Below are positions 1-64,000 of a DNA stretch of 64,000 nucleotides, one piece after another. The position numbers and the translations under genes were made by a program. The stretch comes from Styela clava. Its lineage: Eukaryota. Below the pieces are notes generated by a model. The model worked only from the letters and a program-made list of their open reading frames with translations, was not told the origin of the DNA and did not search any database. Each line of letters opens with the position of its first letter. Position 1 is the first letter of the stretch. The DNA lies in NCBI RefSeq assembly GCF_964204865.1, contig NC_135260.1, positions 13,640,001 to 13,704,000 on the forward strand, written 5' to 3'.

Positions 1-1603
1 ATTAAGACGTTTTTCACGGGGAGTCGCAACTTGATCATATTTATGGAGGGCGTCACAATACGAAGAAGTTCGAGAACCACTGGTGTAACTGAAGTATTCC
101 CAATGACGCCAGATGAGCACGTTCTGGTGTTTAGCAAAATGTATCTCACTTGTAGAGCAGACTATAATCAAAATCTTGTATTGAACGCTCTAGCGACTAT
201 TTTTTAACAAAGTATCTTAATCGGCTTAGTAGTTTAACAGATAAGCATATTAGTCTGCAATGCGTTAAATAAATCCCAATGACAGGAAAACTTTTGCTAA
301 TATGCATATTTGTCGTATTAGGAATGATCGGTACATGTTATTTATCGTCACATTGGGAAGTAGACTACGGTAACTGTACTGCAAAATAGTTGATAATACA
401 GTTGTGACTCCGATCATCACAGTATTTTAATTCCTATGTAAAAATTAATACAGCGAAATTTTAGATGAAATATCAGATCTCATAGAATTTATAGAAATTT
501 TAGGAATAAATAGCAAAAAATACAATCTTAGCCCACTGAAAAGCAATTGGTGCAGTAATCAATGAGAGAGGCGATTTCCTCATAACGATACAAAGAAGAA
601 AAATACCAACAACAACAGGATTACCAAAAATATTTAAACGATCCATAGGTCCACTACCAGTACGTGTCCCAGGTTAGCGTTCGGGTTGTGCGCCATCTTG
701 ATGCACACACGTTGGGAGCTCCAAATTACTTATAGCGGTTTCGTTACCCCCATGTCAGTGGATCTCGTTCTTAGCAAAAGTCGGAACTTGTTTGGTGGGA
801 TACGGTAGACTACGGTACCGGTAATTTAAAATATCAGATAATAAAGTTGTGACTCGGATCCTTTGTTTTCCACAGTTTCATCTTCGTTCAGGATATGACC
901 TTGGGAGAATTGTGGGTAGAAAAAACTCGTTTTGGTCTTGGGTGACCATATATTTAAGCATTGCTCTCTTCCATTTTACCTTATGCTTCAGAGCTACAAG
1001 TGGGTGAATGAAAATTGTTGAGGTGTGATCTAATTGAGAGGGATGAGTGAAGAGTAAATGAAAAGTTTGTAAATAGTTTGATGTCTCCAGGTTTAACTCA
1101 GTGATTTGTGCTTGATTTATTTAGTTGTCACATTTGGGTTCTCCCATTAGAATAAATATTATACTATTCAAGTTTCTGGCGTTGTTTGGTGAGTATTCGA
1201 AGTGTCGCTCGCTGCTCAATAATCAGTATTAGTTTTTCGCATCTCTCTTCACCCTGGAATGTTTCATTCTATTTTACACTGTACACTTACACTTACACTT
1301 TTTCAATTTTCATTCAACTGTGAATTACTGAATTGAAATGAACTGAATAAATCAAGTTGTTAATTGAGAAATTCTGACAGAATTGAGCCAAGTCTAGTAT
1401 TATCTCTGCCAACTTGCACTGTCTTCTTTCTGCAACACTAAACCGATTTAGGTAAAAAATATGTTAACTAGAAGGGATGCTGATCCCGTTTTGCATTTAT
1501 CCATGACAGAAACAACATCATGAACTTTTGCAGCAAAGTAACGTATTCAATTTTATTACAAAAACGAATTATTATTGTTAAAATTATTATTAACTGCAAT
1601 TAC

Positions 1604-4600
1604 CTGCAGTTTGGCTATTCTTTCTTGGACGTACATCTGTAAGTTATGCATATTTTTACGGGCGATCGTTTCAGATTCTTCAATTACATTTTTAAGTTCA
1701 TTCTTTGATTTTCTTGATAAAATAAAATTTTTTATAAAAATTGTTCTCAAATTTCGATTTTTAATCTACCTTAGAATACGAGTCATTTTCATTTTATCAA
1801 CACGGCCAAGCACTTATCCACTCAATTCTAGATAAATATTTTTATTCAATCTCAACAGGGCAAGCTGAAGTTTATAAAAGATAAACTAATTTAAATCAGG
1901 AGTCTTGTTTTCTGTTTCCCTGGTGTTGATTTAACAAACTAAAATTTTGTTCACTTCTTGAATGCCATTTAGGTGCTATGACTTGAGCAATTACACAATA
2001 ATAAATAACTCACATATATCCATTGTTCACAAATTCTTGGATGTCGCTTGGAAGACCTAATCTTTTAATTACCGATGATATATGCAACCAGTAATATTTC
2101 AAATCAGAAAGAAGGTTTGAAATCATGTAGAATTCCGTGGACTGAAAATAAAATGAGTTGAGTGAAACAATGTTTTCTAAGTCACAAGGATAATAACTGG
2201 GCGAAAGACTGAAAGTATTGTGTTAATTAAATCATAGACAAATTATGCAAAGACTCTAAGTCGGAGTTTGTAATTTTTTATTGCAGAGCTGGGAGTCGTG
2301 TTTGAAGCTCTGTGTATTTGAATTAGGTTCTCAAACCGACAGCCAGTGAGTCAAACAGCAAATATTTTGCAATTATGCAACTGTCATTATAAGGGGTTTT
2401 GAATATGTGATATTCCCTTACCGCGTTTTATTGAAAATAGGACCCGTCTTTTATTTTCATTTATCAAAAACAAATTTAAGAAGAAAAGAATTACGAGATT
2501 TTCAAATATAGGACAAAACATGAAAACCGATATCCATTTACTTATAAATAAAACGTTTTCCATTTTTGTTGTGAACATATTATTAACAGCTATGATAAAC
2601 TTATACCTTATAGTCAGGGTTACCATCCACCTTGAGCCAAAAATAAGCACTGGTATAAAGAGGTTATTTTAGGGGTACTTAACAACGGCGGGAACGCAGA
2701 ATGAAAATGAGAAAGGAATCATACACCTTCTCATACCCTTCTAGTCTCTTTCGCACTAATTTTTATCCACTCAAGTTTTTGTTATTGGAAGTCGCTCCGA
2801 ACAAGGTTGCATGCAGCCACGTAATCGCAGAAGGCACGAAATCATAGGGGCCGAGGCCTCACAGGGCATGGACCACGGGTCGAGAATACGCACCCAAACT
2901 CTAGAGCTAAAGAATCTGATAACCAAAGGAAAACGTTTCACTTTGTTTTGGTTGGGGGCATCAACGGATATTGAAAAGGACTGATCTCCGAGTTCTGACA
3001 GCATTTTTTTTCTGAGCATATGTAGCAAGAACTCCTGTGACAATGGCTGTAGACTTTGTTCTGGCACTTGTTAATTTACTACCTAACAATGTCAGAATCA
3101 TGAAAAATCGTTTTGATGTGTTGCGTGGTGAAATCGTTGATGATTTCTGGTGTTTTGCAGTATATATGCATCCCCAGAAGCAGGTAAGTCGTAGTCTATA
3201 TTAGTTGGAATATTCCGCTTGTAAAAAAAAGTCTTCATACTTTGGTTTCCCTCAATGCTTCTTGCAAAATCCTTGTGTTGTGTGGTAGTATTGTGGGCAC
3301 TAAATGCCGTTTTCCCCATGGCCTCTAGTTTGAAATTGCTGTCACAATAGCACCAGTGAGCATAGCTCTTACCCTTTCCACTTTGTTCGTAAAAAGCAAA
3401 TTTCTTTTTATATTCAAAACGGAACCCGTGCTTACGCTTACTCATTGTTTAAATTATGGATTGTCCCTAAAAAGCCACTAGCAGAAACTATTGTAACCGT
3501 GTCACAGTTTGTCTGGATATACCGCAAACCCTACCGTTAACAGAAACAGTCCGCGATGGAAGTGAGTGAGACTGCGCCATTAGGTCATGGTAGAACGTGG
3601 ATGAGTGATACTTCATAATAATAACACAGCAAAGCGTGGATGCGCATTGAGTATATATAATAAAAAACATGGTCCCTCGTTTCCACGGAAGCTTTGTACA
3701 CAAACAATCCATTTTTCTAAGACGAAATAAGCACGCAACTCAAAAATAAGCACTTTTCTTAGAAATAAGCACATCGTTACTTTATAAGACGCGGGCTAGA
3801 AAATAAGCACAAATCTTAAAAATAAGCACGATATGGCAACCCTGCTTATAGTGCAGTTTTTATTGAATGAATAATAGTGAGGCACATTCAGTAAAATATA
3901 ATCGAAGCAAACGTATTTTTTTAAACGTATTTATTTGTTGTGAACATATTATTAACAGCTATGATCAACTTATACCTTATAGTGCAGTTTTCATTGAATA
4001 AATAAAAGTGAGGCACATTCAGTAAAATATAATCGAAGCAAACGTATTTTTTATCCTGTGCAAATTTTCAAACCGATATTATATTTCGTTAATAATGTCG
4101 ATCAATGAAAGAAAAGAATAAGGAAACCTGATTGACAGTTTCATAAACAATAACCAATCTGCAGTAAGATTATTAAATTAGGAAACGAGGTGGGTATCAT
4201 ATGGAAATGCGGAGGAGTTGATATTATAATAAAGGAAAAGAGGCGGCGGAATCGAAACAACAAGGTCGAAAAAAATTCGCGCTATTGACTCTAGCAAGAG
4301 TGGCCAACTGATGCGGTTCTTGGACCGGTTTCGTGCGGCTCCTTTCGCCTTGATTATTTTTAAGGCAAAAACAAATTGCAAATTACGATTCATAATTTTA
4401 AATTAAACATACTGTATTATGATTCATCGAGCATTCTTCTTTCACGTCGAAGATCCACAAACGCCTTCGTTCACTTTACCATACAGTCGTCCATTATTAC
4501 GTGGCAATTAAATTTGTTGTGAAACGCGTTTATTGCACTACAACGGCTGTCGTAACCATAGTTCGGCCTTCAACGAGAAACGTGCAATTTACCATTTGGG

Positions 4601-7600
4601 CGGATTAAATAAAGAACAGATAAAACGTCACAGATTATGTCGTCGACCACTCATTTAATTTTGAGACGGATAGTTTGAAATTCCCTCCAGTCTCAGACGA
4701 AGCTGCAACTGGGTCGAGAATGATCATTCTTTGTGGGGAGGACCAACTGAAATGCACTTTAAATTAAAGGAAGGGACCATTGAGTTATGGAAAAGCATGC
4801 CAATGGAAATATACGCCATTGTCAAACGAGCTGTCCGTAGGGTATTGTCAATGTTTGGATCAACATACGTCTGCGAATCTGTGTTTTCAACCCTAAAAGA
4901 CGTGTTATCGAAGCATTGATCTGTTATGACTGACACCCATGAGATAGAACTGCTTCGATTGGCTACAACGACATACCATACCTGAACTCCCACTAAGTAG
5001 CATGCATAATGATAAATGGCTTGTAAATTTGTGCCATAATCATGTTGGTGAGTGATATTTACAATGAATCAGCATTCTGGAACAGCTGAATAAAGGTATA
5101 TATATCTGATGTTCATGTGTGTTTCTGTTTATAATGTGTCTCTGACTGGTTGGCAACCCCTGAACTATAGCATAGGTCTTAATTTCAGGGTAGGTCTTAT
5201 TTTTGGGGAAACACGGTATGTGCTGAATATTACGCGCATGGCATTAAAGGCTATCCATTGTAGCATACTTGTGACCGCGGAGAACTTACGCTCTAGTTCA
5301 GTGGTTCCCAAACTTTTTAGAGTTGGGACCCACTATTTATTACCACAGCTTATGGCGACCCACTTGACTTTAATTCAATTTTTTTTTGTTTTTTATGACA
5401 TAACACACAGCACAGCAATGGCTAATCATCGCAAAGCTACCGTGTTTCCTAAATAAGACCTGGCCTGAAAATAAGATAATAATTTGAATTTTCAAAATTA
5501 TTTTAATTAAACCCTACCCTTAAAATAAATTTAAAATGTGTGGGAGAGGAAAGCTTCATTGGCCTGAGGTGAGGTGAGGATCACGCTACTATTCAAGTTT
5601 GTGTGATATCACCATTATGATATTTGTCACTTGATTTTTGTATAAGAAATACAAACAAAAACAATGGATGTCGGTTTTTATATCATGTTTAGTAAAAAAA
5701 CTTGAGATTTTCTACAATGTAATTTTATTTTTGATAAATGAACACAAAACACCTCTTCCAAAAAAAAACCGTAGTGGTATTCTTCAAAAGAAATAAATCT
5801 AAATCCTGACTAAATTTCGGGGAAACATGGTAAGAAGTGCTGTACAGTGTACAAAACTGCTATGCGTAAAAAAGCCACATGGTCATTCTTTGTGTAGCAA
5901 ATTTTTGTTCCTTTAAGAAGATCGTAAAAAGGAAACTTTCACAGATTAGAATTTAAATTCAATTTAAATTTTTATTTTTTTTTTTTCAAAGATTTACGTA
6001 TTCGAGTCGCCACCGATCCTAATAACCAGTATAATTATCCAAAGCTTTCTACATCTTTTCACGACCCACTAAGATTCCTTCTGCGACCCACCAGTGGGTC
6101 GCGACCCATAGTTTGGGAACCGCTGCTCTAGTTGGTTGGCTGGGCAGTTATTGACGCTAATCGTTGTAAATTTCACTTATTCTGAGAAAATTTCACCGAA
6201 ACTTGCTATTTCGTTGAAACTTTTGACTTTTCCATCTATCACATTCATCTACTTCACGATTTTTACAACAATTGCAGCTGGAAATCTATTCGCAAAATGC
6301 GTCCGTGAGATTGTGTGTAAACTTAGGATTGAATAGTCGAGTACAAGTTCCAAGTAGTTGACATGTTTATAGGCGGGTTGTTTATAAGTGTTAGCAAGTT
6401 GTATTGCTAATAGAACCGCTACTGTGTTTTTAGAATTCAACATCAAGTCGATAGAAAAGTGTAAAATTACTAATTTTTCAACAATCATTCGTATTTTCAG
6501 TACAATTGGAAAAAAAAATGTAACAAAGTTAAATTCTGGCTCGTTCTTCTCCACAAACAAACATGTAGGCTATACATACTGTATATCGACGTAAAATAAA
6601 AATACTCACATTTCCATTAAAGTAGTCGTCGCTCTTTGCTTCTATTTTATCGTCAAAAAAGTTTCCAATTTCTTCATATCGAATGTCCAAAACGCTAATA
6701 AAAATGTAGACTAATAAAAGTTTCATTTGAAATTTACTTTGTAGTTGAAAAGCGTGTATGTTTTGGGATTTTTCTGAACTCGCATGATCTGAATAAACAA
6801 CATCAATTTCAAGTGCTTCATTAAATGTTGTTCAGCAAGTGTTTGAATGCCGTTGAATTGGATCAAGTGGCTGATTGTATTATCGTATTATATTATCATA
6901 TAAAGAAAAGACAAATACCGTTTGATGAAAAATCTTACTTGAAACCGTCCTGAAGTGCCGATGCTTCTTTTTTCCCTCCTTCTGTTGCGTTTTTTAATAT
7001 CATAGAAGAAATTGAATTCCAGTACTCTTTGAAATTTGTTCGCATGATTTGTACAGTGTTCTTTTTTAAAATTTTGACTCTTGATTTGAATTTTCAAGAT
7101 TAAAAAATGGATTTTCTTAATATGCAACGCGTGATTGAACGGCCCGAAATGAAACTAGTCATTATGATCATAGCATTGAAAAGGTTTTGAAATTACCTCC
7201 TAATAAATAAATAGCTGTTTCTAAGGTTAAATTAAAGGCTTTTTAAAACTATGTACCGATATTAAGCCAGTTCAAACACATTGAAAATTATAATATATAT
7301 ATATAAAAGCTTCACAGATAATGTACGATGATCGACAATTGGCCTATTTATCACCAGTCCCCACCAATAATTTCTATCCTCAATATTCTGTTCAAAGTAC
7401 AATTATTCATGATACATCTTAATACATCTCACATAATGATGTTATTTGATTTAAAATCTTTTTCTTAATGTGATGTGATGAATATGGTGAAAATGAAATC
7501 GTACAGGACATATATAAATGAAAAACGTACCTTTCGTCATTTGACCGCTCAGTCTCCAGCGTTAGAGATTTCAAGGAAGGAACAATATCCAGCAGCTTGT

Positions 7601-8368
7601 CCATGTAGTTGACTCTTAGAAGGAAATATTTCGGAAATATTTATATCTGTGGAAGTTGCAAAACTTGTACTTTTCACAGTGTCATTATGTTTTATTTTCT
7701 CGCGGCAAAGATTAAGCATTTGACATTTCACTTCATCAAGCTAATGATCCAGACAAATAGTCCTCACATACAAGGTCGTAGAAAGGATGGACTATAAAGT
7801 ATTGCGAATGTCATCAGGTATTGGTCTAGGCCAGGGGAGCACAGCCTGCAGCGTACAAGATTAAATCTGCGCTCATGCTGAAAAAATAACGCAGACAAAT
7901 CAGAGGTTATAACATAATTAACAGAGTAAAAATGTCTGACAAGTGATTTACGACTTTTTTGCGTCGTAATAGATTTCAACGCGGAGGACTATCGAACCCA
8001 AGCCTCCTGGGCTCGCCCCCGGCTGTAGATTAAAATTATTCGCCTCTCAACTTTATATTTGGTATTCATGCGGTCGGCTATAGGAAAAAGGTTGTACTCA
8101 TCTGGTCTACCCTTATTGGTGGGCATGAGAAATATATTAATGAGCTTATTACTAAAATGCTTTCCCGGAATTTAGAGAGTCCCAATCCAATATATGAATA
8201 TTATGGGTTTAGCTAGAACGACTTCCTGTCGCTGTGAGTAAAATCAGTGAAATTTGTCTCACGAATTTACCTGTTTCCCGAGAATGTTGTAACATATACT
8301 GTTATCAATATCGTAGAAAAAAGAACAAGGAAAATGGCTTTTCTCTTGGAGGTGAATGTGGAGACCAT
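1604..8368 (-). CDS. FUT8: FUT8-like copy I, exons 1-6 (catalytic exons would lie beyond the window start)
   Basis: Exons 8368-8271 (MVSTFTSKRKAIFLVLFSTILITVYV), 7614-7531, 7079-6939, 6694-6610, 2141-2014, 1712-1604 (..YVQERIAKLQ|gtaatt). All are open and in phase, and homologous to copy III exons and introns. Confidence 0.85.
2615..3844 (-). mobile_element. hAT DNA transposon derivative with transposase remnant
   Basis: TIRs CAGGGTTACCAT..ATGGCAACCCTG; perfect 8-bp TSD CTTATAGT (2607-2614 and 3845-3852); subterminal AAAATAAGCAC repeats. ORFs 3098-3445 (BED-like C/H pattern) and 2771-3067 (FSISVD..K.FPLVIRFF). Confidence 0.9.
4700..4990 (+). mobile_element. hAT (Charlie/SPIN-like) transposase C-terminal dimerisation fragment
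   Basis: LWKSMP..RVLSMFGSTYVCESVFSTLK..SKH* motif. Confidence 0.75.
5299..6125. mobile_element. hAT MITE (Charlie-like) containing a nested Tc1/mariner-type MITE at 5440-5830
   Basis: TIR CAGTGGTTCCCAAACT..AGTTTGGGAACCGCTG; TSD CTCTAGTT (5291-5298 and 6126-6133); empty site in copy III at about 54197. Inner element TA|CCGTGTTTCC..GGAAACATGG|TA. Confidence 0.88.
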
Positions 8369-11415: not shown

Positions 11416-11563
11416 CAAGTATAGCTAGAAATGGCAATAACATTGATGTATGGATTTGCCTAACAAACACAATGTGCTATACTGAGAAAATACACAGTAC
11501 TGAGCACAATGTGCTCATTGAGGCAAGTTCATATATCAAAGTTATTGCTATTTCTAGCTATAC
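11416..11563. repeat. Palindromic MITE-like inverted repeat upstream of FUT8 copies (also about 57985-58140; half copy about 25220-25285)
   Basis: AGTATAGCTAGAAATGGCAATAAC..GTTATTGCTATTTCTAGCTATACT arms. Confidence 0.65.
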
Positions 11564-15213: not shown

Positions 15214-18211
15214 TTACTGACATATATAAGCATCAAGGTGAAGATTTTTCAACATTTGTTTAAATAAGTTATAATTTTTGGAACGAATTGAATTAGGCAG
15301 TGTGTTCCATAGTTTCACACCGATGCATTTGATACTGTTTTGTGTATGACTTGAAGAGTAACGAGAAACATAATATGAGCTATTGGCAGAAGATCGAGTT
15401 GCATACGAGTGGATACTGCTTTGCTTAACAAAATATTTAGTGAATGCAACAGGCAATTTATTATTGTGATGCTGGTGCATGATTTTCGGTATCTCAATTT
15501 TATATATATCTGCCATTTTGAATATTTTCATGTTATAATAGTGGGGTTCTAGTTTCGACCTATATCCAGCGTTAGTAATAGCACGGATAGCCCTATTTTG
15601 CATAATTTCTACTCGATGCAATGAGGTTCTGTTAGCTGATCCCCATGCTACAATACCGTATTGCAAATGTGACTGAACCAATGAATGGTAGACCATGCGT
15701 AATGTTGACGCTGATGTATATCGTCTAAGTCTATACATCATTCCTACTGATTTGGATAATTTAATTGCAATGTTAGATATTTGAATATCCCATTGCATTT
15801 TATTGTCAATGAAGATGCCTAGATATTTATAGGAATTGACAGTTTCAAGAACAGAGCCCCCTATCTCAATTTTTAAATCATGTGGGGGTTTGTTTTTAAT
15901 TGGTGATATCAGCATGGTTTTATTTATCTACATTTAGAGTTAGTTTGTTGAGTTTTATTCAATTTGCAACTTTTTCAATTTCAGCGTTCGCTCTTGATTG
16001 GAGTACTTCAGGGGATTTATCACTATCAAGCAGATTTGTATCGTCCGCGAACAATTTCGAAAATAATGTGGTGCTTCGAGCAAGATCGTTGATGAATATT
16101 AAAAATAAAGTCGGTCCCAAGCACGATCCCTGTGGGACTCCGTGGGTCACAGGTAAGGTGGGTGAACAATAAAAACCCATTTGTACATATTGTGATCTGT
16201 TGGTCAAGTAATCGGCAAAAAGTTTGTTAGCCACACCTCTAATACCATAGTGCCACAGTTTATGTATTAAAATTTGGTGATTAACAGTATCGAAGGCTTT
16301 TTTAAGATCTAAGAAGGTTGCACTGACATATTCTTTGTTTTCTAGTTTATCATAGATGTGAGATATTGTGTCAAGAATCGCATGTGAAGTAGAATGTTCG
16401 CTTTGAAAACCAAATTGTGATTTATTCAGTATCTCGTGCTTTCTGAGAAAGTTCATTAGTCGTTTATGTATCAAGCGTTCGAATACCTTGTCTAAGGCAG
16501 AAAGAATCGAAATAGGCCTATAATTTGACACTTGTTTTGTATTGCCAGACTTGAAGATTGGAACTACTCTCGCGATTTTCAATGAAGATGGAAATATTCC
16601 CAACTGAAGTGAACTATTGAAAAACTTTGTCAGACATGGAGCTATGATATCAGCAACATACTTGAGAAAGCGGCTCTGGATGTTGTCAGCCCCAACTGCC
16701 TTACCATCCTTAAGACTTATGATTTCAGCTGTTAATTCATTCACTGTTGTGGGATTCAGAAATATGGAATTGCTTATCCGCTTGTCAAGATACTTTCTAA
16801 ACCCCTCCATGTCATTGGGGAATTGTTTAGAAAGATTAGAACCGACAGTGGAAAAGTACTGATTGAATTCTTGTGCAATCGAATGACTATCATTAATAAT
16901 ACTGCCATTTTCCAGATGGATTTCGTCAATATTATGCCTTAACTTGTTTTTAGAGGATGCAATTTGATTCACAATTCGCCATGTAGACTTGGGGTTTCCC
17001 TTGTTTTCAGCAATCATATTCTGGTAATACATTTGTTTCGCCATATCAATGGTATGTGTGAGTAAATTGCGATACTTTTTGAAATATGAGCACTGGGAAC
17101 TATTGCCCTTTAGGAAGTGGGATTTATACATTTTATGTCTTGAAAGAATACTATTGAGTACTCCTTTCGATACCCATGGTTTAAGTTTAATCTTTTTTTC
17201 GCGGCGTGACAATTGTTTAAACGGAGCATGGCGGTCAATTAGATGAACAATAGAATTTGTAAATTCTTCAAAATGACTATTAAAATTATGGGCATTCAAG
17301 TTAAATGCAGCAAAGTGATTATTTATTATATCTTGCATGTCTGACCGAAACGCGCCAATCGAAAATGTAGACATATCCCTTCTAAAAATAACATCATTTC
17401 TGATTGATGGTTTGATGCCATTAAGACTACACATTATTGGGAAATGATCAGTAATATCTGATAATATAACATGAGAATCCAGTTTTATATGTAGAGTCAA
17501 GTGTGTATATAAATGATCAATTAGTGTAGCCGAATTTTGTGTGACCCTGGTAGGTCTTGTAATAATAGAAAAGGTGTTATGAGCAACAAACATATTGGTA
17601 TAATTGGCAATTTGGGTACTATATTTTGCTGCAAGTAGATTGATGTTAAAATCTCCCACGATCATAAAAGAATTTTTTGTTAATTTTGTAAGGCAGTTCT
17701 CAAATATGCTGGTAAAAGTAGAAATATCGTTTTTTGGATGTTTATATATAATACCAATGCTCAAATTAATGTTAATGCTTTGAAGGTTTATTTCAAGCCA
17801 TAATTCTTCACAATTGGAGTAATTTAGATGATATTCAGTTGTCTCAGTAAATTTCATTTCTAATAAAAGCACCGACACCACCTGCTTTCGAAGCAGAAGG
17901 TGCGTGTATAAATCTATAGCCATCAATGCTTATATAGTCAGAATTATTGTTTAATTTTGTCTCACTTATAGCTATAATATGGGGTGAAGGGTTGAAATTA
18001 GACAAAAGTGCAGATAGCTGCCCAATATTCTTCTGAATTGAGCGAATATTTAAATGTATGATAGATCGAATAAATCCGAATCAGTTCTAATATTTTTTAT
18101 ATCTGCCACTTCTAGGTTGCTGCAGTGGCAACCACTAATTTGATTTGGGGGTATAAGACTGTTGGCACCATTATCACAATGGTCTGAGAAATTATCATAA
18201 TTATTCGACAT
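15214..18211 (-). pseudogene. LINE ORF2: apurinic endonuclease plus reverse transcriptase (frameshifted)
   Basis: HLNIRSI, ISETK, GGVG, GDFNINL, TLIDH, DHFPI (APE); NYRPISIL, QFGF, FLDLKKAFDTV, GVPQGSCLGP, FADDT, YKYLG, KLWNTLP (RT and C-terminus). Frameshifts near 18070, 17850 and 15915; stop at 15959. Confidence 0.9.
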
Positions 18212-18316
18212 TTACTTATATGGGAAATAAGTATTGGAATTGCAAGGAATAATTATGAATAGAATTATATAGAAGAAAAATGTATGTACATATAAATATA
18301 TATAAAATACAGAAAC

Positions 18317-19304
18317 CTACTTTATGAAAAGTAGATCCTCCTCCGTAATGATTGGGATGGTAGGAGTGTCTGAATTCTTTTTAATGAGCACTTTGCCATT
18401 GTTAGTCGACAGAAACTTATAGCCACATGCTTGCTTCAGATCTCTAGCTTTGAAAAATAAATCTTTGTTCGTGTCGGTTAGATTTTCTACGACAAAGATT
18501 TTGGTGGATCTAGAAAAGCTCGGGAAAACTGTAGCAATGTCTAAGGACTTCAGTCTACGTCGATTCTTCAATATTTGGTTTCTTGTTTTTCTGTTTATAA
18601 AATTTGCAATTATTGGTGATGGCTTTTTCTTATTGTTTTTTGACATTCTATGGCAATTGGAGATGTCAAAGGATTTCAGAGGAACATTAATTTTCTCACA
18701 TATCTTGGAGATTAGATTTTCACAGTTTTCCCCGTTCGAATAAGGAATATTGTGAAATTCCAGATTGGCCAGCCTGGAACGACGTTCTTGGTCCTGTTGT
18801 CTCTCAGTTAGTATATCTACTTCTTCCTCTAGCTCTTCCACAAGCTTTTCAAGTTACATAACTCTTTTTTTTGTTTTGGTTGCAGTTGAGTTCGATTTGG
18901 CTTGATCTCAACTCGTCGAATTTCTTCGACACGAAATCCTGGCTTATTTTGATTTCATGGATTTCGTTTTTGATTTCAGTAAAGGATGTTACTTCAGATC
19001 TTATCTCGTTTATTGACTCTTTCATTGATGTTATTGAATTCTCCAAATTTGGATTATTGGTGAAGGCCTGGTTTGCATCGAAAGACCTTTCAAGATGTTG
19101 CTGGATGATGGTAGGGATCTCGAGACGCAGTGTCTTTAAAACTGTACTTTCTAGTACAGACACCAGATTGGTAATGTCGTCAACTTTAATTGTGGAGGTC
19201 ATTGACGCAGTCGAACGCATGTGTCGATCGGTTGGACTTTTGCGCTTAGGTGGTGCTGGAGGAGAACTGGATTTGTCTGGAGTGTCCATCTTTTCCCACT
19301 GCAC
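18317..19304 (-). pseudogene. LINE ORF1 (coiled coil plus RRM/Transposase_22/FP25K-like), frameshift at about 18870
   Basis: QERRSRLANLEFHNIP..ENCENLI..DISNCHRM..PSPIIANF..IFVVENLT..GYKFL..NGKVLIKK, directly upstream of ORF2. The break falls in an A-run. Confidence 0.8.
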
Positions 19305-19396
19305 AATTCAAGATATTCTTCAAAAAATTAGATGTGGATTACATCCATACAAAAGTTACAAAGATATTAAGTTTTATAGTTATTCATATATCATCC

Positions 19397-24639: not shown

Positions 24640-25184
24640 CTGCAGTTTGGCTATTCTTTCTTGGCCGTACATCTGTAAGTTATCCATAGTTTTACGGGCA
24701 ATCGTTTCAGATTCTTCAATTACATTTTTAAGTTCTTTCTTTGATTTTCTTGAAAAATTATTGTTTTTTATAAAAATCGTTTTCAAATTTTTAATCTACC
24801 TTTAATAATAGTCATTTAGTAATAGTAGTCATTTTCATTTTATCAACACGGCCAAGCACTTATTCACTCAATTATGGATAAATATTTTTATTCAATCTCA
24901 GCAGGGCAAGCTGAATGATAACAGATAAACTAATTTAAATCAGGAGTCTAGTTTTCTGTTTCCTTCGTGTTGATTTAACAAATTAAATTTTGTTCACTTC
25001 TTGAATGCCATTTAGGTGCTATGACTTGAGCAATTACACAATAATAAATAACTCACATATATCCATTGTTCACAAATTCTTGGATGTCGCTTGGAAGACC
25101 TAATCTTTTAATTACCGATGATATATGCAACCAGTAATATTTCAGATCAGAAAGAAGGTTTGAAAGAATGTAGAATTCCGTGGA
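24640..25184 (-). pseudogene. Orphan FUT8-like exons 5-6 (truncated paralog lacking exons 1-4; no catalytic exons recognised downstream)
   Basis: Exons 25184-25057 and 24748-24640 are near-identical to those of copies I and III. At about 25213, intron-4 sequence is fused directly to upstream-region sequence equivalent to about 58085. Confidence 0.8.
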
Positions 25185-26812: not shown

Positions 26813-27020
26813 TTACGAAGGGCTATGGAAAATTGGAAGACTATCTACAGATGGCTTCGATCGTAGTTTATACAATTGAACTCTCTTTTCTTTCAATTGT
26901 TGGTATTGTCGCTATATCCGAACATCAATCTCACTCCTTAATTTCCTCTCTGAATGGTCAGATACTGCAACGTATGGAAATACTACATCCTTACAATAAT
27001 ACGTAAACGAAACGGCATAT
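26813..27020 (-). pseudogene. Decayed FUT8-like terminal (SH3) exon relic
   Basis: After the tttag acceptor: ICRFVY..VFPYVAVSDHS..EIDVR..LYKLRSKPSVDSLPIFHSPS*, with two internal deletions and stops. Homologous to 45346-45023. Confidence 0.8.
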
Positions 27021-34905: not shown

Positions 34906-35143
34906 TGGGACTCTCGAAGTATGCGAACCAAGATGGCGGACATCGGAATGTAATATGTGTACTAGGTTAGGGTTAGGCCATAATTTTAGGTATAAATACT
35001 ACGGGAGACTCTTGGCTAGTCTTCGAACTGATAATAGGACTAAAATAGGGAAAATTGTAAAAAAATTATCGCCTAACCCTAACCTGTTACTCATGTTACG
35101 TTCCGATGTCCGCCATCTTGGTTCGCATACTTCGGGAGCACCG
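34906..35143. mobile_element. Palindromic MITE with GTTAGG/CCTAAC repeats (related: 39445-39554; partial about 670-722 and 21700-21755)
   Basis: Long TIR CGAAGTATGCGAACCAAGATGGCGGACATCGGAA and its reverse complement. Confidence 0.85.
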
Positions 35144-38100
35144 AAATTTTAGACTGTACATATTCGTGACCCTGTCCTAACGAAAGTATCTTGAGCGCTA
35201 ATCTATTTTAGAAGTAATCCATTGTTCTGGCAGAAAGTAATCCATTGTTCTGACAGAAAAATCTGCAAGGCTTAAAGAGGTCACAATGACGAGAAAACTT
35301 CTGTTATAATGCGAACTAATTATTTAATTACCTGCAGTTCGTTTATTCTTTTTTGGACGTACATTCGTAACTTATCCATTTTTTCATGGGCAATCATTTC
35401 AGAATCTTCAATCAAGTTTTTAAGCTCTTTCTTCAATTTCCTTGGTAAAATAAGTTATATCATGAAAATTGTTTTCAATTATTCTATTTAATCGACACTA
35501 TTAAACTGTTAGCAATCAAAGTTTCTATTATCCTCCTGTTGAGATAATAAAATGAGATCTTATTCATCACTTGAATCCTAATTGTGTGGAAAAACCTAAG
35601 CAAATTTCCTATATGTTGATAATAAACTCACATGTATCCCTCGTTCACAAATTCTTGCATGTCGCTAGAAAGACCTAATCTTTTAATAGCCGATGTTATA
35701 TTCAACCAGTAATACTTCAGATCAAAAAGGAGATTTGAAAAAATGTAGAACTCAGTTGACTGTGAATAAAATTAGGATTTATTAGGTACAACGAAACGAT
35801 GTTCTCTAACTTACAAAGATAATGACGATTTTGAATTGACGATATTCAAAATTATATATAGACAAATCACGAAGCTGGTAACTGTACAATTTGTTCGTGG
35901 ACAGAGTTATTAATTCAAAGTTTGCATATTCGCTTATACCAGTGCCGGATTCATTTTTGGAATTTTGTGTAGGAATTTTGACAGGAACCACATATTTCTA
36001 AAATAAGAAGCTGGTGAGTCGAAACAGCAAAGGTGCAACTGTGTCTAAAATTCATTCCTGAATTCTATCGAGAAGACTTTTATTAACGTGCGGAATCATT
36101 CGCAGGTGTCGTCGAGTAGTTATGTCGTGCCATTATTTGTCACGCTCAATGCGAAGGCAACCAATACACTCTTGTCAGTTCCATCAATGACGTTGTTTAT
36201 TGTCATTGGTTCCATAAACCGTAAACGTAGGTAAGTACAAGGAGTATCCCACATGTTCATAGTTGTGTGCATATGTGCGTTTCATTGCTGGACTGCGCAT
36301 ACTATGGTAAAACATAGCTTGATAGCACTGGGGTAGTCAGTGGTTGATTGCCATTATTCTTTTTCTTACTAGCAATCATGTTTTGGCAATCCATTTCAAT
36401 TCTGGGTCATTTGGATCAATACACAAAAATATAATATTGCATATAAACTACAATCATGACACTCACAATTCTACTGGAATAGTTGAAATTTGTTGTAACT
36501 TTATTGTCAAAAAAGTTTCCAATTTCTTCATATCGAATGTCCAAAACACTGTTAAAATGTAGAATATTGATAGCTTTATTTCAAATTTAGTTTTTAGTTT
36601 AAATGTTTGTATGGTTGTGAATTTTCTTTCTGGTATTTCGCATTTTAAATAGTATTGACAAGCATCAACTTAGTGATGTGATACAACGGATATATCGAGG
36701 TTGCATAATTTCAAACTAATGTACATTTATGGCGTATGTTGACAAAGCCGCAATGTGTGAAATTTTGTTGTGAGGTTTATGTAAAAACAAGCCAAATCAT
36801 TCACCTGAATATAAACAACCCGTTCACAGGTGTTTGAACCAATTTGAATATTTGAGTATAGTTGAATCGAACAAAAGATCATCAGTGAAACAATTTCGAA
36901 AAAATAAAGGATTATCACACAATTAAAGGCGACGCGCGATTAATGTTGTTTAATGTGAAATCGTACTTGAAACCATCCTGAAGTGCCGATGCATCTTTTA
37001 TTCCATCTTCTGTCGCATTTTTGAATATGATAGAAGAAATTGATTTCCAATATTCGTTAAAATGTGTTCGCATGATTTGCACGGCATTCTTTTTTATATT
37101 TCGAATGCTATTGCTTATTTTTTATTGTAATAAAAAATAAATGAATTTTTAAAACAATGGATATTGAAAAGGAGGCAAAATAGAACTCATTATTATGATC
37201 ATCGCATTGAAAAAATATGAAATTATTAAACTATTTATGGAAAGTATATGGATGTATTAAACAATAAACACCAAATGTAATAAAACACATTTCTAAAACG
37301 TTTTTTGAAAATTATGTTCAGTTCAAAAACCTGTAAAATTACAATCTATATATAAGTTTTACAGTTAGAAATGCTGTACAATTGGTCCCATTGCCACCTG
37401 TTTTCCCCCAACATTTTTTATATCAATATGCAGTACAAAGTACAGTGCCATATCCATCATTTGGTGGTATTGAGTGCACTTTCTGGTAAGTTTTAGAGAC
37501 AAACAATATAATTGGAAATATATATGCAATACTATTCATTTGAATCATGATTGTTACTCGATCATGCCATTTTATATTTAAATTTTTTTGTTCTTATTGT
37601 GATATGATGAACATACTGAAAATTGGATTTTATAGGACGAGCACAAATGGAAAACTTACCTCTGGGTGTTTAACTTCTCATTTTTCAGTGTTCGAAATTC
37701 CAGAAAACCGACAAAATTCTGTAACTTGTCCACATAGTTGACGCTTAAAATTAAAAATAGCATGTTGCATATTTTAAAAATTTATGTGTTTGGAAGTTCT
37801 AAAACAATGAATATATCTAACAGTTTAGTCATTTTATGTCGATTGAAATAGAAATTTGTATTTATCTTATAAATTTACCTGTTTCTCGAGAATTTTGTAA
37901 CATATACTGTAAATAATAAGATAGAAACAAGCAAAAGAAAAACTGCTCTTCCTTTAAAGTTGAATCCAGATACCATATTAAAATAATCTTGTGTCAAATC
38001 TATCAAATCATTTAATTAACATTAAATTCTGTAAAAGGCACAAAAAAGAATGAGCGCTAGTTAGCCGGTCAAATGTTTTCAAATCTGATTCTATTTAGTA

Positions 38101-56954: not shown

Positions 56955-59583
56955 TTCAATCAATTAACTCTATTTAGATCTTATAATTGTTCTAAATTCA
57001 TGTTAAAGATATCAGAACCAATTTAACGTTAGTCAATCCTTCAATAATAAAACTGTAGTGCGCAAATGAGACCCACAAATTCAAAGTTTATAAATGGAAA
57101 AATATGAATTGATTTTAGTATAATAGTTTTAATTCTTGTCAATTTGGTAATCCCCTCTTTTTAGTTTTAGTCAGCTCTCTATTTCATATTTTATTCAACA
57201 ATGTCAACAATTACATTCTTTACGAGTGACCTTGTGCTTCCTATAACACCCAGATTTCTCACATAGGTATAAGCTTTCAGTCGGAATACCCAAATGGATA
57301 ATGCATCAAATTGTATCTATACTGCTCGTGACTGTAATTCTTACATACACCTCAAACTCAACATTTCCTTCCAATTTTTCCCCTCTAAAAAACAAATTAA
57401 GATGATTTTTTGGTACATGACTTTCAACAAAAAAATAGGTTATGCTTACAAAGTGAATTAGTAAAACAATATTTGCAGATATGGTATATCTACCGAATAC
57501 TCAAAAACAAGAAATATCGGAGGAATGAACACTTCAAACCATAAAGTAAAAAACAACATAAGCTACCACGTTTTCGATATCTAATATCAATCGGTAATTT
57601 TGAACCAAATATGTCTTCTTTGGAAATTCAACCATCGATCAAATTAAACGAACATTCCTCATAATTTAAACTTGCATTATTTATTTACAATATTACTCTT
57701 TATCTGAGAGATGAAGACCCAGCTTGGAGACTTTTCAAAAAAATTGATCTTGGACGTCACTTTATAAACACAAAAACCGTGTTGAGATTAAATGCATATT
57801 TTTGGAACAATCTCATTTAACGAAACATTAATTTATTTGGTTTCAACTTGTTAACATTATCCAGTACATAAACATACGATAATCTATCATTTTAACATTG
57901 AAAACTAACATCAGCTCTAGGATGAGTATGAATACTATAATATTGAAAAAATAAATTAAATAAGATGAATCTAAAAGCGAGTGTATATATAGGAAATAGA
58001 AATAACATTGATATATAGACTTGCCTCGATGTGTACAATGTGCTATACTGAGAAAATACACAGTGCTGGCCAGCATGGGCACAATGTGCTCATTGAGGCA
58101 AGTCCATATCTCAAAGTTATTGCTATTTCTATCTATACTGAGAAAAGTCACAGTAGTTCTACTCCAGCGGCTCTCAGTTTTGGCTGAGATGACGTCGCGT
58201 GTCATGAAGCGATCCCTTCGACTACACTACAGCCGCCACAGAAAAAAACATGGGCGTAGGATAATCATATACTAACCATGTGTAAAATTAACAAACTTTC
58301 AAATAACAGTTACTCCTGGCCTGTACTTTTGAAATATTTCTGACATAGAAATTATATGTACCTTTCTAATAAATATATTCTATTTCAACGACAAACTGAC
58401 AACTGAGGTTACTTGTAAAATTTTCAAATGTACGATACCAGTACACGCCACTTAGAAATTTGAATAAAGATGAGGAAAATATATTAGCAATACTTGATTT
58501 TTTAGTTTTGCAATATTACCTTCATTAAAAGTAGTATTGAAGCACTTGATTTTGTGAAATTTGAGAAGGTATATATTCTAAAACACTCTAACTAAACTAA
58601 CTGAAACACTCTACATACATTAAACATATATATTAAAATACAGTAAGATAGCGATCAGTTAGGTTGAAACCGGTAAGACACTGATATCAGAGAGAGCAAT
58701 TTTGAAATTAAAATTTTTTTTACTTTATTTTTTTTACTTTTTTACTTTACTTAAAAAATTTTTTACTTACTAAGCCTTAAACAAACAGCAGTTTTCAATT
58801 GAAAGCCGGACCTCGAATTATTAATCCTATTTTAAAGACAAAAGCCCTTGTTATTTACCCAGGTTATGCGTGTCGATAGTCATTTGCACAATGAAGAATA
58901 AATTCTATTCAGAGAACAGCAAATCTATACTGCGCTGGGACTCTCTATGGTTAAAAATAAAGAAGTTATTGGACACGAAGTGGACATACATATCGTTTGG
59001 TTATTATGTTGTTGTTGGAATTCTTTTTCTTGTTGTTATGAACAAATCGATATTCTCATTACCTACTGGACCTATTATTTTTACGAATTTGAAAATATTT
59101 CGTTATTTCAGGTTCTATATACTTTGCCACGCTTCATTGCAAAATAAACATATCCAAGCTCATACGAATCACTGTTATATGTATCATTTGTAAGAATCGT
59201 CCTGTATTGAGAGTATGGATCGTTGCATCTTATTGTATGAAATATCACTTGTTAAGTAAGATACTATGAACATTCATATGTATAATATTTTTTTTTGTCA
59301 ATATCAAATGTAATACGGCCAATAATTTAGGTATTCTACTCATCCAATTGAAACATAAATTTATTTGATTCAAGACCGGAATATCTAAATTCTAAAGCAT
59401 AGATATATTAATAATTGTGTGATAATTGAGAAAAACAACGGTCGTCTTCCCACCATCGATCACATTTTCCAATATTGAGAATTTCGGTTTCAACTTTGCG
59501 TTGGGAATGTTGCGAAGGAGATCTACGGAGGACTATAGAAAATCGAAAGACTATCTACAGATGGCTTCGATCGTAGTTTATAC

Positions 59584-59986
59584 TGTAGCGAATGTGCATT
59601 GTGTAACTATGGATTATAATGTATTTAACCCTTTCATATTAATAGCATGTAATATTTCACAAAATAGGCCGCATTATGTTTCGCAACAGCGATAATGCAT
59701 TCGCTCCATGTATTGCCTTTCTCGTTTCGACCAATTTGATGACGTATCGTTTCCGGTTTGCCGAGACTGCTCTATAATATTGCCCTTTTTGTTTCACTTG
59801 TGATCTGACCGTAATCTTACTGCATTAAGAATTAAGTGTGTACAATTTTATCTGTACTTGGAATTTGGATCGTGCATCTTTTCAATAATATACAACAATT
59901 CGACAATCAACATCGTGTGCTTATTATCGTCTGAGGGAATCCAGATTGGAGTCACATTCCACAACACGTAAAATTAAATTCCTATA
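59584..59986 (+). repeat. 5' LTR (about 70-bp deletion in U5)
   Basis: Starts TGTAGCGAATG. About 10 mismatches by eye over about 390 bp versus the 3' LTR. Followed by the PBS. Confidence 0.9.
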
Positions 59987-59989
59987 TTT

Positions 59990-60007
59990 TGGTGATACCG
60001 ACGTGAT
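59990..60007 (+). promoter_or_regulatory. Primer-binding site complementary to tRNA-Trp
   Basis: TGGTGATACCGACGTGAT matches the canonical tRNA-Trp PBS TGGTGACCCCGACGTGAT at 16/18 positions and lies just after the 5' LTR. Confidence 0.85.
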
Positions 60008-60274
60008 GCGGTCTTAGGGATAAAGTCTCTTCACCCTAATATTCAAAGTTCGATTCCCACGTTATTAATTTCACGTGTTGTGGAATGTGACTCCAATCTG
60101 GATTCCCTCAGATGATAATAAGCACACGATGTTGATTGTCGAATTGTTGTATATTATTGAAAAGATGCACGATCCAAATTCCAAGTACAATAAGTTTGTG
60201 AAATATTACATGCTATTTAATATGAAAGGGTTAAATACATTATAATCCATAGTTACACAATGCACATTCGCTAC
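60000..60274 (-). repeat. Third, inverted and internally deleted LTR copy
   Basis: Reverse complement reads GTAGCGAATGTGCATTG...cacaaa[deletion]tgtacttgg...TAAGACCGCATCACGTC, matching the 3' LTR. Confidence 0.9.
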
Positions 60275-60367
60275 TCAGTGAAATGAATGAAGCAGCAATT
60301 GTCGGCATAATAGTTCTAGTGTCGTTAATGTAGTTTTGAGAGTAGGGATTTTTCAATGTAGATAAAC

Positions 60368-60742
60368 TCACATCGAGTATATTAAACTGTATTTGGCCAG
60401 GAAATCAATGCCAATGATAGGAGTTCGTACTTCCGTGATTTGGAATTCAAAATTGTAAGTAAGGCCATCTCCAAAATCAAAGGTTAACAAACGAGTTCCA
60501 TACCATGGTATCTTCGTACCATTGACGGCATAAAGAGAATGACTAAGGGATTTCTTTATAAAAGTAGGTAAAAAATCAACTGGAATAATTGAAAAGAATG
60601 AACCAGAATCGACAAGAAATCGACGTTGACTCGATTTATCAAATATGTACATAAAAGAAGTCGTTTGTTGCCATGCAGAGTTTGATGTTGCACAAATTTT
60701 ATCGGGACTTCGACAACGTTGACCAGACGTTAATGAAAATTT
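60368..60742 (-). pseudogene. pol: Retropepsin-like aspartic protease (start of pol), in -1 frame to gag
   Basis: FLVDSGSFFSII...LYAVNGTKI..YG...PIIGIDFLAKY. Entered through slippery heptamer A AAT TTT (plus strand 60736-60742). Truncated before RT. Confidence 0.88.
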
Positions 60743-61291
60743 TGAAAAGCCATTGTACATCTTTCACCTTTGCATTTGTAAGCTTTGTCGCCAAAAGTCG
60801 CGTGATAATAGCAAGGATTGGGGTCTGCATTTTGTTGAGAATTGTCCATTGGCGGCCCATTATTATGTCGAAAAGGCGAACCGTTGTATTCCGGGGGCGG
60901 ACCACGATATTGGCGATCGCTTCTAGGAGGTCACCTCGAGCTGTTGTATCTCTGAGGTGGTCTGTCTTGGTAATCGTTGCGTCTCTGATAATCATTTCGT
61001 CTGTGCTGACGGTTGTAATTTGGGCGGTATGTTTGCTGTTTTTCCTGTGTAACCTTGTCTAACTGAGTTTTTAGCTGTTTCATTTCTGCTAATAATTCTG
61101 AATAAGCTCCTGTCTAAGATTGTGGTGTTGTATTTGAAGTAGTAGCAATTTCTGATGCGGAATTTGTATCCAAGAATGTTTCTGCCATGTCTACAATTTG
61201 ATCAATGGAGCGTTTCGTTCCAGTTTTTGAAAACTGTCGTCTAACAAAGACTGCCATTGGTTCTGGTACAAGGGCCTTTTGAATCATGATT
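60730..61291 (-). pseudogene. gag: Gag C-terminal part (inverted), with CHCC motif
   Basis: Manual translation: ..IDQIVDMAETFLD..(2 in-frame stops)..R/P/Q/N-rich linker..PCYYHATFGDKAYKCKGERC..QNFH* (C-x2-H-x9-C-x4-C). Confidence 0.8.
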
Positions 61292-62553
61292 GTCTAGTGT
61301 ACGGCAAATCCAGTTGTATATTTGTGTAGGTGTCATATTGCTCTCAACGAACGAAATCTTTCTTTGAATCAAACAAAGTCTATTGTACATACAATGGCTT
61401 GGATTTAAACGTACATGACAACTGCGCAGACAGTGTCAGATTACGTTATAAAGGCGTTGCCTCTTCATGGCATGACGTCACCAGTACCTGGTTTTCAAAA
61501 GTCGTTTCGATTGTACAACAGTCGTCCGATCACGACTCTGAATTATTCGCCGAATTCTACGACAGAATACACGAATTGGAATGTCGTGTTGAATCAATGA
61601 TCTCCCATTTACTGAAACCCCTAGCACAGTTGTACCCCTCTCAAATATAATCTGCAATTTTAAGACGTGAAGTTCATGCAATTGCTCATGGAGATGTTCT
61701 TGTCGAACTTCATTCTGTTTCCGCTAATTTTACAGTTCTACCAACACTTTTCTTTAACAACCCGTATGCAACACGTCCGATTGTTGCATATACCTTGCCT
61801 AACAGATCTACAGAACTTGGACAAATCCACGCCAGTAACGTCGTTTTCAATCAAATATTACTGACTGAATCACCCCGATTTGGACAAACGAAAATTTTCA
61901 AAATCAATGGCAGCTACTACAAGTATTTCAACTATTCACTAGTATCCAGAAACGAAAATGTGAAAGAAGTATACCCCTCACTGTATACAACCTTTGACGA
62001 CCCATCTACAAAAGATTACAGCTAATTTCTTGAAGAAATTTTAGCAGATGAAGAGGAAGTTTCCGCTACAAGCATGGACGACCTTTTAGTTACAATTTCG
62101 GGACTCAACAAACTGAATGACGATTACAAAGGAGGACGAACCTCTGCAGAAACTATTGATATCACTACACTGGAAGACGGAATTCAAAAAGCCGTCAACG
62201 GCAATATATTTGCCTGGCTCTTGCGAGTTAAGAGCTCAGCTTGGAATTACGTCATAGGATTTTGCCTTATTTACGCATTATTTGTTATACCCATTCTTTC
62301 TTTCCTGTACATAGGATATTTCATTTTTCAAAGTTTGCCAAACTGCCGAATTACCATTCGCAATGCATTAACAAATGGATTGTTCAAGCCAATACAACGA
62401 CTTCTCAACATTCAACGACAACCCGTTGTACAATTCGACGAACAAGAAGAAATACACCAGATATCCGATGTCGAAATTGACGAGGAAGATATAGAAAGTG
62501 CTAGCAACTTCTCAGATGCGAGCACCCAAGCTCAAATGGAATCAAAAGTTTGA
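61292..62553 (+). pseudogene. env: Envelope-like ORF resembling herpesvirus gB / class III fusion glycoprotein (5'-truncated, three in-frame stops)
   Basis: ORFs 61330-61650, 61795-62025 and 62074-62553 share one frame, with stops at 61327, 61648 and 62023. Read-through gives [57 protein letters not shown], then TM segment WNYVIGFCLIYALFVIPILSFLYIGYFIF and an acidic tail. Located upstream of the 3' UTR, PPT and 3' LTR, where env normally sits. Confidence 0.8.
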
Positions 62554-63435
62554 CCGTAACAAACCTTTCGATTTATCTACACACTATTAGGGAAACTCGA
62601 TTTCGACGCACGTTGCGAATTGTATATGGTGTGTAACTCGCAATGTATCGCTTCTTTATTACTTATTATCATTTTTATCAACTTAATCGTCTTGTATTTT
62701 AATATTATCTTTTTCTCTTATTATTATCCATCATAAACATAAGAAAACATCTTACTATAAAAATTTTAAATATTACAACACCCTCAAAATAAAAATATTT
62801 TGTATTCTCATTTTCTTTTGTGTGTATTTACTTAGTACTAATCAATTGTTGTTTTTAGATATCATGAGTTCTTTTACTTCATACAGAATTTGATTCAGGT
62901 TCAATCTCAAGGATTCAATGGTTCAATAATTCTTCAAATCAATCATTATTCAATTTTCAGGATTTTTCTTACTTATTATTTTGTTTCAAGTTACCTCTAA
63001 CATCAATTTTACGACCTTAAACATCAACCCAATTGCAATGCAATTTTTAGTACTAAACCCGCCATTTTATTCATTCTCAGTTTTTTTTCCTTAAACATCA
63101 GAGCCGTTTTACATTATAGGGTGTCCTTTCCGGTACATCATCGCCATTTTGTTTCAATGTATCGTTACAATTTTATTTTCAAATGTTAAACATTTCAAAG
63201 CACCACGGAGACCCTTTGAAATTTTGTTTTTGTATTTTTACTTCTCTCTCGTATTTTCTTGCTCTCGTAAACGACGTATATTCTCTCGTATACCTTAGCC
63301 ATTATTCATCATACCGTACCCTTATCTTTTATTGATTCGTGTTCTTTTTGTTTTTAGACTTCATCTCTCGGCGACCGGACTACAAAATTTAAAAAATTAC
63401 CAAGTTAATTTTTTTTTGCTGTCGAGGGGGAATTG

Positions 63436-63902
63436 TGCAGCGAATGTGCATTGTGTAACTATGGATTATAATGTATTTAACCCTTTCATATTAATAGCAT
63501 GTAATATTTCACAAAATAGGCCGCATTATGTTTCGCAACAGCAATATTGCATTCGCTCCATGTATTGCCTTTCTCGTTTCGACCAATTTGATGACGTTTC
63601 GTTTCTGGTTTGCCGAGACTGCTCTATAATATTGTGCTTTTTGTTTCACTTGTGATCTGACCGTAATCTTACTGCATTAAGAATTAAGTGTGTACAATTT
63701 TATATGTATTTGGAATTTGGATCGTGCATCTTTTCAATAATATACAACAATTCGACAATCAACATCGTGTGCTTATTATCGTCTGAGGGAATCCAGATTG
63801 GAGTCACATTCCACAACACGTGAAATTAATAACGTGGGAATCGAACTTTGAATATTGGGGGGAACAGTCTTTATCCCTAAGACCGCATCTCGTCTCCCTA
63901 TA
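63436..63902 (+). repeat. 3' LTR
   Basis: TGCAGCGAATG...CGTCTCCCTATA (decayed TG..CA termini). Preceded by the polypurine tract and followed by TSD ATAC. Confidence 0.9.
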
Positions 63903-64000
63903 ATACCATAGAACTTTTTCTTTCTCCTAATTGTTGGTATTGTCGCTATACATAAACCCATCCATCGACCAACTAAATAATGAACAGAAATAGATTTATT

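Follow-up and report, generated by a model that had tools for sequence, protein, structure and literature searches.

Does a run of FUT8-like genes in an ascidian genome represent a true tandem array, and are its products still the enzymes that their name implies? The question is raised by a window of 64,000 nucleotides from Styela clava (assembly GCF_964204865.1, contig NC_135260.1, positions 13,640,001 to 13,704,000), AT-rich with 31-39% GC across its length, in which a preliminary description had recognized co-oriented genes related to the GT23 fucosyltransferase FUT8 and proposed that they turn over by birth and death. It had also taken FUT8 to be usually single-copy. This holds for most of the genomes behind the 96 sequences surveyed in PMC4204859, whose accessible text further states that GT23 did not diversify in animals (here and below, cited articles are represented by the portions accessible to us), but it has to be qualified by expansions already described in trematodes. 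The tandem array of FUT8-like (GT23) genes on the minus strand is confirmed. Its best explanation, which we consider probable, is a genuine array belonging to an ascidian clade of divergent GT23 fucosyltransferases, in which donor chemistry has been kept and the acceptor site has changed.

All same-strand repeat blocks noted earlier were recovered by self-BLAST (Table 1), all seven candidate exon frames matched Pfam FUT8_N_cat, and one exon used as a query matched only S. clava proteins, named 'alpha-(1,6)-fucosyltransferase-like', at 81-96% identity. Splice-site search and exon alignments resolved at least three gene copies, as had been proposed: A (11 exons), B (11 exons, disrupted), and C (exons 1-6). 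The introns of gene A are all GT-AG and its translation shows 0 mismatches to P0006 (XP_077974066.1); gene C likewise shows 0 mismatches over 215 amino acids (aa) to the N-terminal part of P0002 (XP_077974253.1). Gene B has intact splice sites throughout. Its exon 7 has lost 7 nt at one point and gained 1 nt at another, in-frame stops falling between the two lesions, and in exon 9 Tyr replaces the Asp368 equivalent. Over exons 1-6 and 8 it differs from P0015 at 9/286 residues and from A at 87/286, and over exon 11 it differs from P0015 at 24/104 residues and from P0009 at 9/104. This pattern is that of a chimera, with exons 1-8 of P0015 type and exon 11 of P0009/P0002 type; the 3' part carries its own annotation, P0008. 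The orphan exon 5-6 fragment was also found where it had been placed. In this remnant (D), a spacer of the unit-A type runs directly into the last part of intron 4 (junction 25225~58083 / 25214~53431) and about 4.65 kb including exons 1-4 are gone; beyond exon 6, intron-6 sequence continues as far as about 21034, with 94.8% likeness to A and 91.8% to C. No tblastn match to exons 7-11 was obtained between remnant D and gene C. Two last-exon relics had been reported and both were located, but they are not independent: the lower piece of relic 2 with its flank is 92% alike relic 1 over 183 nt, so a single relic was copied with the unit. Relic 1 contains two internal deletions, a frameshift, and a stop. 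In the direction of transcription the order is split relic, gene A, gene B, second relic copy, remnant D, a decayed long interspersed nuclear element (LINE), and gene C. The repeated unit is a relic last exon, a spacer, and a gene; it is represented by A and D, and by C with the relic missing. The unit-A spacer has homologs in unit D (25225-26873) and in unit C (11134-12372), the match upstream of gene C ending at 12372.

The predicted proteins belong to the GT23/FUT8 family by Pfam match, fold, donor and catalytic residues, and membrane anchor. P0006 and P0002 scored 286.6 and 291.8 bits against FUT8_N_cat (cut-off 27.6). An AlphaFold model (predicted template modelling (TM) score, pTM, 0.79) comprises a membrane helix, a long helical stem, a GT-B domain, and an SH3 domain. 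Its top Foldseek matches were all FUT8, with the human and mouse proteins best (human FUT8 TM 0.62/0.75, E~5e-30), and the ESM Atlas returned FUT8 clusters only. Exon 11 of gene B gave a weak SH3_9 match (E=3e-4), and a single N-terminal membrane anchor is indicated by a hydropathy peak of 2.0-2.4 from residue 11-12 in four of four proteins. Residues are given in human FUT8 numbering, transferred via P0064 (offset 17), and their roles in donor binding and catalysis are those described in PMC7033129, PMC12930516, and bioRxiv 2020.02.14.949818. In the alignment, Y250, H363, R365, R366, D368, K369, E373, D409, D453, and S469 are conserved in 9/9 array proteins with intact sites, and damage to donor or catalytic residues is confined to pseudogene B.

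The array proteins depart from canonical FUT8 in overall sequence conservation, in the Arg365-Asp368-Arg441 lid lock, and in the acceptor contacts. In FUT8, loop 429-446 closes over GDP via these three residues (PMC12930516, bioRxiv 2020.02.14.949818). The loop is six residues shorter in 10/10 array proteins and in P0016, with no conserved equivalent of Arg441, and the lid segment measures 23 residues in 10/10 array proteins against 27-31 in 98/109 non-Styela rows. Exon 10 of the array genes is exactly six codons below the chordate norm; the missing codons thus correspond to the lid-loop deletion. On the acceptor side, K216, D295, Q470, Q502, H535, and K541 are lost in array proteins. From a set of eight acceptor contacts (K216, D295, Q470, D494, D495, Y498, Q502, and H535), three are kept in the copies on the 22-Mb contig (D494, D495, and Y498) and two in those on the 31-Mb contig. 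Both cysteines of the CGYGC motif, which we take to be a disulfide pair, are replaced. Because the donor machinery is kept and the acceptor site is reshaped, these enzymes may fucosylate different targets; it is reasonably likely that they are active inverting Golgi GDP-fucose transferases with a loosened lid and a changed acceptor site that varies among paralogs.

The window is one part of a larger family. Annotated proteins, from which the counts are taken rather than from a whole-genome scan, place at least 15 S. clava GT23 loci on six contigs of 22-31 Mb, so the possibility raised at the outset that this might be the only GT23 locus does not hold. The 22.07-Mb contig has seven gene models at six or more loci (P0003 and P0007 match two halves of the older P0009), the 31.34-Mb contig has four loci, and four further contigs have one or more each (P0016; P0056 and P0207; P0057; P0058). 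The ten Styela rows analyzed all fall in one long-branch clade with support of 100/100 in IQ-TREE, recovered likewise in an 83-row FastTree analysis, with branches of 0.5-0.8; within it, a subclade (100/100) holds the six short-loop rows, P0016 and the two arrays. Neither FastTree nor IQ-TREE resolved the attachment point of the Styela clade. Identity to the canonical FUT8 P0064 was 34-42% for 10/10 Styela rows, compared with 41-59% for 13 other rows. The gene A protein is 35% identical to P0064 and scores 228 bits against human FUT8, where P0064 scores 695. The array genes form a GT23 clade that diverged long ago and whose acceptor site is remodelled; they are not fresh copies of canonical FUT8. 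With intact, pseudogenised, chimeric, and remnant copies in one fully supported clade, the proposed lineage-specific expansion with births and deaths is borne out. The array exon sizes (1-36-0/0-72-1/2-74-2/1-54-2/1-44-0) follow the pattern of chordate fut8 (1-38-0/0-78-1, 1-58-2, 1-50-0; PMC4204859), and the clade therefore arose by genomic duplication; retrocopy or horizontal origin is ruled out by the chordate intron pattern. No canonical Styela FUT8 ortholog was seen among the protein matches listed, which included only divergent Styela rows; these searches could not show absence, as they comprised word-indexed listings of 5, 12, and 7 proteins, none named vertebrate FUT8, and a library of 50% clusters that hides members.

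The older S. clava paralogs P0016, P0056, P0057, P0058, and P0207 share the 100/100 clade with the arrays, together with a Thr367-to-Gly change and altered acceptor residues. P0056, P0057, and P0058 differ from the arrays in retaining a 29-residue lid with Arg-Tyr and a CGFGC motif, whereas P0016 has the lid deletion in common with the arrays and is their sister. P0058 and P0207 have no catalytic-base Glu at the aligned position (DKLKDSGG and DKLKASGG) and may be non-catalytic or use another base. Whole-exon duplication varies the length of the stem, exon 2 being doubled in P0009/P0003 and exon 3 in P0004/P0011. Stem exons 3-4 and 5-6, compared as an internal repeat, gave hhalign E=0.001 with a probability of 21%, and shuffles were significant in 2/5 proteins at the 5% level; tentatively, these exon pairs may be an older repeat. 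P0009 (596 aa in the older annotation) is represented in the newer one by a 423-aa N-part, P0003, and a 135-aa C-part, P0007, a split that appears to be either a segregating null allele or a model or assembly error.

Divergence between copies is unevenly distributed. Synonymous divergence (dS) between A and B was 0.475 in exons 1-6 versus 0.084 in exons 7-10 (Fisher p=4e-8), and introns 9 and 10 of the two genes are 95% and 92% alike, compared with 72-80% for introns 1-6. When five full-length copies from the array are compared, identity is 98-99% in exons 9-10, 58-81% in exons 1-4, and 75-99% in exon 11. Births and deaths are thus accompanied by exchange between copies, which keeps the catalytic exons homogeneous. 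Intact genes and pseudogenes are interspersed within a lineage-specific clade, as birth-and-death evolution entails; independent divergence without homogenisation does not describe the array, in which exons 7-10 are homogenised and B is chimeric. Evolution here is thus partly concerted, a point that the preliminary description had missed. A chordate fut8 gene was duplicated genomically, introns included; new copies arise through unequal crossing-over (B being a 5'/3' chimera), and others are lost to frameshift, deletion, and transposon insertion. Exchange between copies maintains the likeness of exons 7-10 while the stem and SH3 exons diverge. Variable residues among the five copies occupy 26/55 positions of the SH3 segment, compared with 2/30 in the initial part of that exon (p=9e-5) and 4/100 in exons 9-10.

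Several points weigh against an array of active enzymes with altered acceptors. Arg441 is described as required to hold the closed active state (PMC12930516), so the lid deletion could lower or abolish activity; the Arg of a 'QRG' sequence may stand in for it, though this residue is Lys or Glu in related rows. An N-glycan acceptor would be consistent with the equivalents of D494, D495, and Y498 retained in the 22-Mb-contig copies. Other divergent invertebrate GT23 proteins also frequently have altered acceptor residues (K216 in 32/111, D295 in 37/111, and H535 in 35/111), so the loss of these three in array proteins is not special. Ratios of nonsynonymous to synonymous divergence (dN/dS, omega), resting on four in-window sequences of which one is a pseudogene, were 0.57 (A-C), 0.45 (A-B), and 0.35 (C-B) in exons 1-6 and 0.45 (A-B) in exons 7-10, values that mark selection on the copies as purifying and relaxed. 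In the SH3 segment, A and B differ by 14 replacement and 2 silent changes (pN/pS ~1.9); positive selection is hinted at, but the excess is not significant (p=0.53). The comparison of dN/dS among copies suggested in the preliminary description therefore yielded values below 1 for these exon blocks and no significant positive selection, and rapid adaptive turnover of the kind seen in immunity or gamete genes is so far unsupported. Finally, the sequencing runs that speak for transcription are only guessed to be RNA. Spliced contigs were obtained in three of three such RNA-like runs from three studies: in contigs of runs X6, X7, and X11, introns 7, 8, and 9 of gene A are spliced out at the GT-AG sites that had been predicted, and a B-type intron 5 is skipped in one contig. 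The contigs bear differences typical of other paralogs, such as six SH3 replacements of P0002/P0009 type, which indicates that several copies are transcribed. They cannot be assigned to a single copy, and none to A alone.

The alternatives differ in how they accommodate these data. Dosage or near-neutral turnover is unlikely, though it has to be taken seriously. On this view the copies would be ordinary core alpha-1,6-fucosyltransferases, or redundant versions of a single divergent enzyme, that unequal crossing-over has multiplied in a region rich in repeats, and their acceptors would not have diversified. It would account for the near-identity of catalytic exons between copies, for omega below 1 wherever there are enough sites and nowhere significantly above it, for the retention of D494/D495/Y498, and for the many dead copies and abundant transposons. 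It sits less easily with the concentration of replacement changes in SH3 loops within one exon, with the age of a clade that has branches of 0.5-0.8 and is maintained on six contigs, and with the loss of the K216, D295, and H535 contacts. The favored reading of a divergent clade with a changed acceptor site can be carried further, to a function that we offer tentatively and regard as doubtful. The Styela GT23 family would make non-core fucose on other acceptors, combining a homogenised catalytic core with swappable, diversifying SH3 exosite exons; the products would be polymorphic fucose epitopes displayed by the egg coat, the tunic, or haemocytes, perhaps in an animal with no canonical FUT8. 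To our knowledge, the best-defined fucose sites on the egg coats of Ciona and Halocynthia are O-fucose on EGF repeats, which GT23 enzymes are not known to make. Sperm of these ascidians nevertheless bind the egg coat through its fucose, by means of a sperm fucosidase (PMC9265791), and this makes a gamete function for the array plausible.

It is very improbable that the products are catalytically weak or dead proteins that bind GDP-fucose or glycans, or partners that modulate canonical FUT8 through a coiled-coil/SH3 oligomer interface. The shortened lid loop without its Arg441 latch and the lengthened, variable stem would suit such proteins, but intact array copies show no variation at donor-binding or catalytic-base residues, which are damaged in pseudogene B alone, and other fucosyltransferases bind GDP without an encapsulating movement (bioRxiv 2020.02.14.949818). 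That the copies are an assembly artefact of uncollapsed haplotypes, a caveat of the preliminary description, is scarcely credible, because they are 9-22% apart in coding DNA (identity over exons 1-6 is 91% for A-C and 78% for A-B), far above the k-mer heterozygosity of ~1.72% reported for S. clava (PMC7540406), their introns are 72-95% alike with different insertions and length differences of up to 3.5 kb, B and D carry private lesions, and the older annotation version likewise has distinct paralogs, P0005 and P0009. Near-allelic annotated pairs do occur outside the window (P0006/P0001 differ at 10/503 aa, P0004/P0013 at 4/575, and P0004/P0012 at 5/398), and the genome-wide count may be inflated. 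A Hi-C run from another sample (X15; 1,890 million letters), with no single-copy baseline, gave ~0-2.6x in non-repeat bins over A and B alike; our own arithmetic from 340-407 Mb puts the single-copy expectation at ~5x, and 79% of the placed reads run on into unlike sequence.

Compared with animal FUT8 (GT23; human PDB 6TKV/6X5H), the array proteins share the type II anchor, helical stem, GT-B and SH3 domains, donor and catalytic residues, and chordate exon pattern; they differ in being encoded by many copies rather than one, in a longer stem with duplicated exons, and in the six-residue deletion from loop 429-446. Multiplication of GT23 within a lineage also occurs in flukes: Schistosoma mansoni has six alpha6-FucTs, five of them in one array (PMC3655985), and Calicophoron daubneyi has eleven GT23 genes (PMC11727788). 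Like the Styela genes, the S. mansoni FucTI-M array (which is accompanied by a separate FucTH) is made up of tandem multi-exon copies that closely resemble one another and whose 5' and 3' identities form a mosaic. Styela, unlike the flukes, is a free-living chordate; its loci number at least 15, spread over six contigs, and belong to an older divergent clade that contains two distinct recent arrays. We infer that the expansions in Styela and flukes originated independently; the trees include no named trematode rows. Several Penaeus GT23 paralogs were among the protein matches, as was P0055, a 1615-aa firefly (Aquatica leii) model with at least three FUT8 modules in a row, which probably reflects a further tandem GT23 array merged into a single annotation. 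Repeated expansion of GT23 was thus already on record. No paper on Styela FUT8 or fucosyltransferases or on a tunicate GT23 expansion was found in the open-access literature, some figures and supplements of which were unseen; the text supplement of the S. clava genome paper, whose GT-domain figure was not visible, names the alpha-1,3 family alone.

Mobile elements are interspersed with the genes. The insertion of the long terminal repeat (LTR)-type element that splits relic 2 is flanked by ATAC on both sides. LTR copies at 59584-59977 and 63436-63829 are 97.5% alike, and a third at 60000-60274 is inverted and internally deleted. On the plus strand the element has a weak frame resembling herpesvirus glycoprotein B (Pfam Glycoprotein_B E=3e-4, below cut-off); its minus-strand frames, which had no Pfam match, are presumably gag- and protease-like by their motifs. 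No reverse transcriptase (RT) frame was seen in 59584-63902, and the right end is without a terminal CA. The decayed LINE has ORF1-like, endonuclease, and RT sequences in separate frames (RVT_1 E=3e-28, Exo_endo_phos, Baculo_FP_2nd), the ORF1-like frame matching Baculo_FP domains at E=3e-11; no target-site duplication longer than 8 nt was found. Intron 4 of gene C contains a remnant of a hAT transposase dimerisation domain (4674-4919; Pfam Dimer_Tnp_hAT match at 4674-4916). High-copy short repeats at 34900-35150, 39440-39560, and 31900-32130 reach Hi-C depths of ~400x and are also abundant in RNA-like contigs; the sequence at 39449-39550 is palindromic and resembles a miniature inverted-repeat transposable element. 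Local tandem duplications lie at 26254-26537 (143 bp, 92% alike) and 43168-43579 (206 bp, 97% alike). The window gave 0 Rfam matches and 0 tRNA genes.

Table 1. Features of the S. clava window and the duplicated blocks within it (window coordinates)
Feature	Position	Strand	Evidence or remark
Gene A, intact FUT8-like, 11 coding exons, 571 aa	45023..56954	-	spliced translation
Gene A exons 1-6	56954-56857, 56243-56160, 55752-55606, 55048-54964, 53402-53275, 52974-52866	-	
Gene A exons 7-11	48466-48250, 47921-47696, 47390-47226, 46981-46849, 45346-45023	-	
Gene B, pseudogene and chimera, 11 exons	28873..37976	-	exon alignments, translations
Gene C, exons 1-6, remainder beyond the left end of the window	1604..8368	-	splice-site search
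Remnant D, exons 5-6 only	24640..25184	-	splice-site search, self-BLAST
Last-exon relic 1	26816..27050	-	tblastn; DNA alignment to A and B exon 11
Last-exon relic 2, two pieces (63973-63903 and 59583-59529)	59529..63973	-	DNA alignment
Spacer between relic and exon 1	57773..59583	-	part of duplicated unit; self-BLAST
Rearranged LTR-type element, ~4.3 kb, inside relic 2	59584..63902		self-BLAST
Decayed LINE between remnant D and gene C	15214..19307	-	Pfam, open reading frame list
Self-BLAST block	1-815 ~ 21034-21846	same strand	88%
Self-BLAST block	866-1546 ~ 23680-24425	same strand	82%
Self-BLAST block	1598-2173 ~ 24634-25217	same strand	91%
Self-BLAST block	23853-25214 ~ 52047-53431	same strand	89%
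Self-BLAST block	25225-26392 ~ 58083-59244	same strand	85%
Self-BLAST block	26396-26873 ~ 59104-59583	same strand	93%

Tandem arrays such as this one are commonplace in genomes, and the genes here were already annotated by name. With the lid-locking loop naturally deleted and the SH3 exosite exchanged exon by exon, the copies provide a natural mutant series that bears on what sets the acceptor specificity of FUT8 and on whether the Arg441 lock is needed, and they may supply alpha-1,6-fucosyltransferases of new specificity.

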